Of a stretch of 64,000 nt of DNA, positions 51,940-52,552 are shown piece after piece. A model generated the notes under the pieces. The model had not been told where the DNA came from. It was given only the letters and a program-made list of their open reading frames with translations, and did no database searches. Each line of letters starts with the position of its first letter. The first letter of the stretch is position 1. A program made the translations under genes and the position numbers. The stretch is from Escherichia phage vB_EcoP-CHD5UKE1, in sequence record NC_070989.1; one strand, written 5' to 3'.

Positions 51940-52143
51940 TTAGTAGAACGAACGAATTTCATCCCACACTTGTTCCTGTTCTTTCCTATAAAAAGAAAGT
52001 TGGGTCTTGAACATCTCCACTGATGATTCAAAGTTTTTGGTTTGTGCAGCTTCAACGAAACGTTCATGTCGGTTGATTTTGCACCGTAGCATTAAATACT
52101 TGGCTTCAAGTCTCCGAAGAGCCTGCCTTTTCTCAAGATTCAC
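51940..52143 (-). CDS. hypothetical protein (67 aa)
   Basis: ORF between primase-helicase and the modification cassette. Confidence 0.4.
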   Translation of the reverse strand: MNLEKRQALRRLEAKYLMLRCKINRHERFVEAAQTKNFESSVEMFKTQLSFYRKEQEQVWDEIRSFY

Positions 52144-52552
52144 TTTTCAGATACTCTGACCAGTCGCCAGATTCAACCAGAACATCTTGTTCTTCGTCGA
52201 TGTGATAAATCCAAGCGATAACAGTTTTACCTGAGTCCAGCTTAACAGCAATCTGAGTACGCTGATAGAAGCTGTCTTCAGGGCTACGTTTGTTGTAACC
52301 TTCCAGACGGTCATACGGACCTTCCAGACCTGCTTTGTCAGTAGCAAACACTTCTACACGAACAGGCTTATTGTTATTACTGTGTGCGAGAGAGATGCTC
52401 GGGAAGTAGGAACCACCGTAACGGAACAGATCGAAGTTATCTTCAGTCCAACCTTCGCCAATAGACTTAGCACCAGCTCGATCATTAACTAAATAGTTAG
52501 CTTGACCACGACGAAGAGAACCATAAGTTGCTACGTAAATTACTTCTGACAT
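52133..52552 (-). CDS. gamma-glutamyl cyclotransferase-like (AIG2/GGCT fold) protein (139 aa)
   Basis: N-terminal YVATYGSLRRG (YGSL motif) and downstream acidic residue typical of GGCT/AIG2. Confidence 0.55.
   Translation of the reverse strand: MSEVIYVATYGSLRRGQANYLVNDRAGAKSIGEGWTEDNFDLFRYGGSYFPSISLAHSNNNKPVRVEVFATDKAGLEGPYDRLEGYNKRSPEDSFYQRTQIAVKLDSGKTVIAWIYHIDEEQDVLVESGDWSEYLKSES

Follow-up and report, generated by a model that had tools for sequence, protein, structure and literature searches.

The gene at positions 52133–52552 of a 64,000-nucleotide (nt) stretch of the genome of Escherichia phage vB_EcoP-CHD5UKE1 (NC_070989.1; the whole stretch is hereafter called the window) almost certainly encodes a catalytically competent member of the gamma-glutamyl cyclotransferase (GGCT) type, as judged from its sequence and predicted structure. 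It is referred to here as the GGACT gene, after its Pfam family. The gene is part of a cassette: the GGCT-type gene and those for an ATP-grasp ligase, a glutamine amidotransferase, an Amidoligase_2 protein and a COOH-NH2 ligase, five in all, are found on the minus strand between 52133 and 59534. The conservation of this arrangement across phages makes it likely that GGACT works in the same pathway as the other cassette enzymes. As an overall explanation we favour, on balance, a cytoplasmic, catalytically competent gamma-glutamyl(amine) cyclotransferase of the BtrG/YtfP-like kind acting within a make-then-cleave cassette. The specific scheme, in which the cassette would first make and then cleave a gamma-glutamyl amide, is put forward more tentatively, as one that may or may not hold.

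Family assignment and the catalytic glutamate

The open reading frame (ORF) listed in a preliminary description of the window is real and intact. It exactly fills positions 52133..52552 of the minus strand, stop codon counted, and encodes 139 amino acids (aa) from an ATG start. The protein begins MSEVIYVATYGSLRRGQ, and the translation start given with the full description of the ORF is MSEVIYVATYGSLRRGQANY. The 69-aa ORF upstream ends with a stop codon 1 nt ahead of the ATG, and the sequence GGAAAGG before the ATG resembles a Shine-Dalgarno sequence. Pairwise ratios of non-synonymous to synonymous substitution rates (dN/dS) of 0.04–0.42, against relatives at 48–99% identity, show that the gene is under purifying selection. 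The N-terminal YGSLRRG motif pointed out in the preliminary description is found at residues 10–16 (ATYGSLRRGQ). The same description placed the gene at the 3′-end of the cassette. In the minus-strand sense this is correct, since no further enzyme gene of the cassette follows it downstream of the ligases, but the string of genes continues into a 67-aa ORF and a primase/helicase gene. A consensus scan predicted no minus-strand terminator between GGACT and the primase gene, so that GGACT, the last enzyme gene of the cassette, probably does not end a transcript.

The protein matches PF06094 (the Pfam GGACT/AIG2-like family; gathering cut-off 22.8 bits) with 63.4 bits (E=3.9e-17) over profile positions 2–119 of 120, well past anything chance would produce. 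PHROG 2520, named “gamma-glutamyl cyclotransferase”, matches it at 1.6e-44, and each of the 90 homologues recovered in a search of 5.8 billion proteins carries PF06094. Two related families gave no qualifying profile match. The protein scores 15.3 bits with AIG2_2 (PF13772; the GGCT, C7orf24 family), under the cut-off of 27. There is likewise no Pfam match to ChaC at E<=1, and ChaC structures are found by Foldseek as weak fold matches only, with query-normalised template modelling (TM) scores of 0.42–0.58. The PF06094 match and the GGCT fold of the predicted structure, a beta-barrel with helices at its flanks, bear out the AIG2/GGCT assignment originally made from the YGSLRRG motif.

Absence of a catalytic glutamate on alignment had been named as the observation that would overturn this assignment. 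In a profile (hidden Markov model, HMM) alignment, E84 (YDRLEGY) falls on Glu82 of human GGACT (LDDFES). Conservation was read from an alignment of 32 diverse homologues, down to 33% identity, in which E84 is invariant (32/32), together with Y10, G11, S12, L13, R14, N19, P51, D81, L83, G85, F95, Y96, Y116, G129, D130 and W131. The glutamate is thus present and invariant, and the objection is therefore answered. The active site of GGACT comprises the YGSL motif and Glu82 at the end of a cavity helix (10.1101/2025.01.15.633182). A model of the phage protein built on the homologue alignment with AlphaFold 2 (mean predicted local distance difference test score, pLDDT, 94.8; predicted TM score 0.89) has the same arrangement as given there: the substrate-binding YGSL loop (Y10-G11-S12-L13) comes straight after strand 1 (residues 5–9), and helix 73–84 terminates at E84.

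Foldseek searches of the PDB with this model returned only GGCT-fold structures among the top matches (1V30, 1VKB, 3JUB/C/D, 2QIK and 2RBH; E 1e-8 to 5e-5). The proteins concerned are PH0828, mouse and human GGACT, c4763, YkqA, the C-terminal domain of allophanate hydrolase, and human GGCT, and 3JUD is the E82Q mutant of human GGACT. Query-normalised TM scores to PH0828, GGACT and YkqA are 0.66–0.72. Human and mouse GGACT (A2LD1; 3JUB/3JUC/3JUD, 1VKB) share with the phage protein the PF06094 family, the fold (query-normalised TM ~0.70), the YG(S/T)L loop and the catalytic glutamate (E84 = E82). They differ from it in that identity is ~24%, the C-terminal ESGDW helix of the phage protein lies outside the alignment, and GGACT works by itself in the catabolism of epsilon-(gamma-glutamyl)lysine, while the phage protein is encoded within a ligase cassette.

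A profile built from the homologue alignment matched PDB entries in the order E. coli YtfP (7.7e-12), mouse GGACT (6.8e-8), B. subtilis YkqA (1.4e-6) and human GGACT (2.6e-5). YtfP (1XHS) and YkqA (2QIK) are matched over the full length and have the C-terminal SGDW motif in common with the phage protein, but the alignment gives Arg in YtfP and Gln in YkqA at the column where the phage protein has its catalytic Glu84. Both have been described as homologues of BtrG (10.1101/2025.01.15.633182). The ESGDW motif and the ranking of the PDB matches point to a putative place in the prokaryotic BtrG-like group (BtrG, YtfP, YkqA), a placement that comes from profile scores with YtfP, YkqA and GGACT.

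YtfP also suggests another reading of the phage gene, namely a catalytically inactive binding protein, as has been proposed for YtfP itself. YtfP is the best PDB profile match and shares the ESGDW motif. With Arg in place of the catalytic Glu, it is thought to be inactive (10.1101/2025.01.15.633182). The phage E84 and YGSLR are, however, invariant across all 32 homologues, and an inactive binder is scarcely credible here.

Occurrence in phages and linkage to the ligase genes

The region is 98.7% DNA-identical to Escherichia phage vB_EcoP_SU10 (Kuravirus, Gordonclarkvirinae; phiEco32-like), in which RefSeq already names the GGACT gene gp078 (YP_009152929), “gamma-glutamyl cyclotransferase”. The phiEco32 orthologue, at 98.6% protein identity, has the same RefSeq name. 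These are the same gene as that of the window, in the same position and with the same neighbours, and there is no substantial difference between them. Phage genome papers that refer to Iyer et al. (2009) and Hardies et al. (2013) count GGCT among the genes of a “peptidoglycan modification module”, a putative one, and report that the cassette is conserved in phiEco32, 7-11, RIO-1, LUZ24, PaP3, tf, CW02 and others. The gene annotation and its association with the cassette are therefore both public already, and the identification made from the window is correct but known.

At least 174 cultured phage genomes carry a relative of GGACT. When 185,579 genomes of bacteria and archaea were scanned, only four matches came up, all on contigs of ~0.9–6 kb. 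These contigs (L132–L135), recorded as Herbiconiux daphne or as Phocaeicola and Bacteroidales metagenome-assembled genomes, encode a phage-type GGACT at 52–57% identity, and similar Kocuria entries carry the flag “UNVERIFIED_CONTAM”. The small bacterial contigs are probably phage contamination of the assemblies. Since these four are the only bacterial matches and look like contamination, the GGACT clade is taken to be phage-borne, and these matches offer no cellular gene setting to draw on.

Linkage was counted with HMMs iterated from the window proteins, scoring genes within 10 kb. Seeding with the GGACT profile gave 50 viral contigs, among which several negatives are contig ends. ATP-grasp genes were found in 37/50, Amidoligase_2 and COOH-NH2 ligase genes in 30/50 each, and class-II amidotransferase genes in 21/50, always on the same strand as GGACT. 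Seeding with the COOH-NH2 ligase gave at least 407 viral contigs. Among the best 80 of 407, for which gene content was determined, Amidoligase_2 was present in 80, ATP-grasp in 74, the amidotransferase in 73 and GGACT in 48. All 84 locus entries that hold both GGACT and ATP-grasp genes, a set that includes some contigs twice, have the two genes co-oriented; they lie within 1 kb of each other in 64 and within 150 nt in 28, and both orders occur. ATP-grasp is the closest partner gene of GGACT.

Two arrangements can be distinguished. In the Kuravirus and LUZ24 order the ligases are followed by ATP-grasp, GGACT and the primase, and in LUZ24-like phages the ATP-grasp and GGACT genes overlap. In the other order GGACT comes first and ATP-grasp right after it (with a 13-nt overlap in the locus L030), followed by two Peptidase_C26 genes, the COOH-NH2 ligase, the amidotransferase and a long Amidoligase_2. 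The linkage holds down to ~27–35% identity and in phages of Escherichia, Pseudomonas, Vibrio, marine and other hosts. That it has been kept through rearrangement and through divergence of this extent favours a pathway shared by GGACT and the ligases.

Cassettes that lack GGACT have, immediately ahead of the COOH-NH2 ligase gene, a gene of Peptidase_C26 (PF07722), the family of gamma-glutamyl hydrolase and PuuD. In ten examples these proteins scored 60–84 bits (cut-off 20.5), in each case above the class-I amidotransferase model; related loci that carry the gene include L030:11723-13120, L113:9099-9779, L124:9412-10008 and L098:8680-9354. The window itself contains no Peptidase_C26 gene. A census of gene states covered 92 distinct contigs with the ligase core, part of the sample being GGACT-seeded. 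GGACT only was present in 53 contigs, Peptidase_C26 only in 23 and both in 11, so that 87/92 cassettes hold one or the other or both. The remaining five have neither, and in each of these the contig breaks off on the side where the gene would be expected. Put conservatively, we saw no cassette with enough flanking sequence that was devoid of an enzyme predicted to cleave gamma-glutamyl amides. Loss of GGACT appears to be confined to cassettes in which Peptidase_C26 is present. The pattern goes back to a small number of events, mainly a single GGACT loss in a lineage in which Peptidase_C26 was already present. Fisher tests of GGACT against Peptidase_C26 (p ~1e-6 to 1e-9) were not relied on because of the few events on the tree and because part of the sample is GGACT-seeded. 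No earlier description of this apparent pattern was found. A replacement enzyme downstream of ATP-grasp in the GGACT-less cassettes was also considered and rejected: the ORFs there, of ~245 aa, have either no Pfam match or weak sub-threshold primase-type matches (Zn-ribbon, Toprim).

The make-then-cleave proposal and competing explanations

Ligases of the glutamine-synthetase (GS)/GCS2 type typically activate the gamma-carboxylate of glutamate. In the scheme we propose, an ATP-dependent ligase of this type in the cassette would form an L-gamma-glutamyl amide on an amine-bearing intermediate, which the ATP-grasp enzyme and the second ligase, fed with ammonia by the amidotransferase, would elaborate. 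The alpha-amine of the glutamyl group would then attack the gamma-amide, with Glu84 as general base, to give 5-oxoproline and the free amine. The GGACT step would thus serve as deprotection or turnover, in the manner of BtrG when butirosin is made or of PuuD in putrescine utilisation (the Puu pathway). The Peptidase_C26 genes of GGACT-less cassettes would fit the same make-then-cleave logic. The suggestion in the preliminary description that the enzyme could trim or recycle a glutamyl adduct installed by the ligases is an inference that comparative genomics supports but does not prove.

Both model pathways resemble the phage cassette in part. In PuuA/PuuD, the gamma-glutamyl amide comes from a GS-like ligase and is hydrolysed afterwards by an enzyme of the Peptidase_C26 family, and GGACT-less phage cassettes similarly hold Peptidase_C26 beside GS-like ligases. 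The Puu pathway is catabolic, however, with oxidase and dehydrogenase steps that have no counterpart in the phage cassette, and the window has the cyclotransferase instead of a Peptidase_C26 enzyme. For butirosin, the likeness lies in the combination of a GGCT-fold enzyme, BtrG, with an ATP-grasp ligase, BtrJ, since adjacency of GGACT and ATP-grasp is the most conserved feature of the phage cassette. The phage cassette differs in having two GS/GCS2-like ligases and a class-II amidotransferase, and neither an acyl carrier protein nor a BtrH-type transferase was found in it. In butirosin biosynthesis the ligase is reported to add a protective gamma-glutamyl group, which BtrG later removes as 5-oxoproline (Llewellyn et al., 2007, as summarised in 10.1101/2025.01.15.633182).

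Several observations weigh against the make-then-cleave proposal. GGACT is absent from about a quarter of the cassettes (the 23/92 with Peptidase_C26 only) and so is not universally required, and in the ligase tree these cassettes form approximately one clade, nested among those with both genes. In Kuravirus, three small ORFs (52554–53247 in the window) stand between the GGACT and ATP-grasp genes. The match of the ATP-grasp protein to RimK and D-Ala-D-Ala ligases reaches 16–32 bits, far under the family cut-offs, and RimK-type enzymes make alpha-linked rather than gamma-linked glutamate, which GGACT could not cleave. No domain match to a BtrI-type carrier protein was obtained in the cassette enzymes and the two of five small ORFs that were scanned. 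The active-site geometry was judged from alignment and secondary structure only. Finally, we found no experimental work, biochemical or genetic, on any member of the cassette in the literature, nor an enzyme assay of any phage GGACT member.

Some of the same observations would suit a stand-alone auxiliary metabolic gene that acts on gamma-glutamyl-amino acids, gamma-glutamyl-polyamines or epsilon-(gamma-glutamyl)lysine of the host, yielding amines and 5-oxoproline, with its proximity to the ligases inherited as mere synteny. The quarter of cassettes without GGACT and the small ORFs that part it from the ligases in Kuravirus are in line with this, as are the PHROG class of the protein (“moron, auxiliary metabolic gene and host takeover”) and the 13/50 GGACT-seeded loci without ATP-grasp within 10 kb, only some of which are truncated. 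Yet the linkage outlasts a reversal of the ATP-grasp/GGACT order and persists to ~27–35% identity, the genes are always co-stranded and often overlap, and GGACT appears to have been lost only in cassettes with Peptidase_C26; we regard a stand-alone role as fairly unlikely. Unlikely, too, is the reading repeated in phage genome papers with reference to Iyer et al. (2009) and Hardies et al. (2013), in which the cassette would rewrite peptidoglycan stem peptides, as a block to superinfection or in preparation for lysis, and the GGCT-like enzyme would degrade or recycle gamma-glutamyl muropeptides. The module, as those genome papers describe it, is the same gene set, with phiEco32 a named member. 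Gamma-linked D-Glu does occur in stem peptides, and the ATP-grasp protein has its weak likeness to D-Ala-D-Ala ligase. The reading was nevertheless reached by analogy alone, with no experiment found in the literature, and the stem-peptide residue is a D-Glu whose alpha-amine is acylated by L-Ala. GGCT-type cyclisation requires a free alpha-amine on the glutamyl group (10.1101/2025.01.15.633182), and with that amine blocked a GGCT-type mechanism cannot use the stem peptide directly. The annotated cassette proteins include no Mur-ligase, transpeptidase or export function, and the cassette is placed amid replication and nucleotide-metabolism genes. Another GGCT-fold domain, from a different protein, failed to bind the E. 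coli penta- and tetrapeptide (10.1101/2025.01.15.633182). The present analysis neither confirms nor needs a cell-wall target for the module.

The surrounding replication and nucleotide module, together with three Zn-ribbon-like motifs on the amidotransferase, could instead suggest that the cassette, GGACT included, builds a covalent DNA or nucleotide modification, which would explain the restriction resistance of the Gordonclarkvirinae. We consider this highly improbable. Nothing resembling a base-modifying enzyme (glycosylase, hydroxymethylase, kinase or transferase) turned up; what is labelled “thymidylate synthase” in the phage proves to be an ordinary ThyX, and the dCTP deaminase is ordinary as well. 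Podophages of the LUZ24-like, marine and other kinds widely carry the same cassette, and no report of hypermodified DNA was found for them, an absence of evidence only. In SU10, a further small protein bears the annotation “anti-restriction”. A broader version, that transient gamma-glutamylation, removed by GGACT or Peptidase_C26, builds a phage product (a DNA/nucleotide, small-molecule or protein modifier) behind the resistance of the Gordonclarkvirinae to restriction-modification and other defences, is a long shot.

Under the make-then-cleave proposal, the cyclotransferase would be the most tractable handle on the chemistry of the cassette. Since the enzyme can by its mechanism act only on an L-gamma-glutamyl amide whose alpha-amine is free, a GGACT knock-out should pile up the penultimate intermediate and so reveal the cassette product. 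The gene call itself is routine. Its mild interest lies in the cassette, which is widespread (at least 407 viral contigs with a relative of the COOH-NH2 ligase), takes up ~7–9 kb of a 77-kb genome, and resides in a phage group with strong and so far unexplained resistance to defence systems.

Neighbouring genes and other features of the cassette

Table 1. Genes of the cassette and its flanks, with positions in the 64,000-nt window.
Position	Strand	Feature	Remarks
50123-51913	minus	Primase/helicase gene	Downstream of the 67-aa ORF
51940..52143	minus	67-aa ORF	Links the cassette to the primase/helicase gene; shares 11 nt with the 3′-end of the GGACT gene
52133..52552	minus	GGACT/AIG2-like (BtrG/YtfP-like) gamma-glutamyl cyclotransferase gene, 139 aa	YGSLR (residues 10-14); Glu84 as the predicted catalytic residue; C-terminal ESGDW (127-131)
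52554..53247	minus	Three small ORFs of 69, 61 and 82 aa	82-aa ORF is phrog_8339, kept only in Kuravirus-like relatives
53254..54447	minus	ATP-grasp ligase, weakly RimK/D-Ala-D-Ala-ligase-like	Gene most tightly linked to GGACT across phages
54450..54888	minus	Two small ORFs of 74 aa and 77 aa (DUF7195)	
54891..56921	minus	Class-II (N-terminal nucleophile, Ntn) glutamine amidotransferase, 676 aa	ATT start; C-terminal half with three CxxC..CxxC motifs
57001..58104	minus	Amidoligase_2, glutamine-synthetase-like carboxylate-amine ligase	PF12224
58101..58718	minus	Conserved cassette protein, 205 aa	phrog_4877; no family assignment
58728..59534	minus	phiEco32-type COOH-NH2 ligase type 2	PF14395
59527..61705	minus	Two proteins, 323 aa (phrog_13102) and 398 aa (phrog_13063)	5′ side of the cassette; Kuravirus-like relatives only

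The ATP-grasp protein of the window has a highly acidic linker (~residues 280–315) and an extra C-terminal domain (316–397, phrog_20552), both of which are missing from the shorter (~230–300 aa) ATP-grasp proteins of other cassettes. The 77-aa ORF at 54655–54888 (minus strand) matches DUF7195 with 61.9 bits, and LUZ24-like phages also have a small ORF in that slot.

The amidotransferase gene has a rare ATT start (56919–56921) with the ribosome-binding site AGGTGGA before it and the codon for the nucleophile Cys directly after it, as in the SU10 annotation. A truncation of this gene, suggested by the 563 aa of the ORF list against the 676 aa of SU10, was rejected, as the frame is open to 56921 in both genomes from the ATT start. 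The CxxC..CxxC motifs in the C-terminal half of the protein are zinc-ribbon-like. The Amidoligase_2 and amidotransferase genes are separated by 79 nt (56922–57000, minus strand), in which two hairpins are predicted (-23 kcal/mol, z=-2.4). The second of these overlaps the ribosome-binding site of the ATT-start gene and may control its translation.

In the 205-aa protein, the most conserved stretch (residues 84–127, SPDVGY...NPVRQRAKGL) is the part with an AlphaFold pLDDT < 50, while the rest of the model resembles small SH3/Tudor-like barrels. Downstream of the replication genes, genes for ThyX, dCTP deaminase and a CCA-adding-type nucleotidyltransferase can be found at 44896–49627 (minus strand). 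To account for the unexplained restriction resistance of these phages, the BASEL paper singles out the last two, and it leaves the amidoligase cassette unmentioned. The SU10 “DNA binding protein”, with a ferritin-like (Dps-type) domain, has its counterpart at 46092–46691 (minus strand), and a PhoH-like ATPase is encoded further downstream at 42795–43538 (minus strand).

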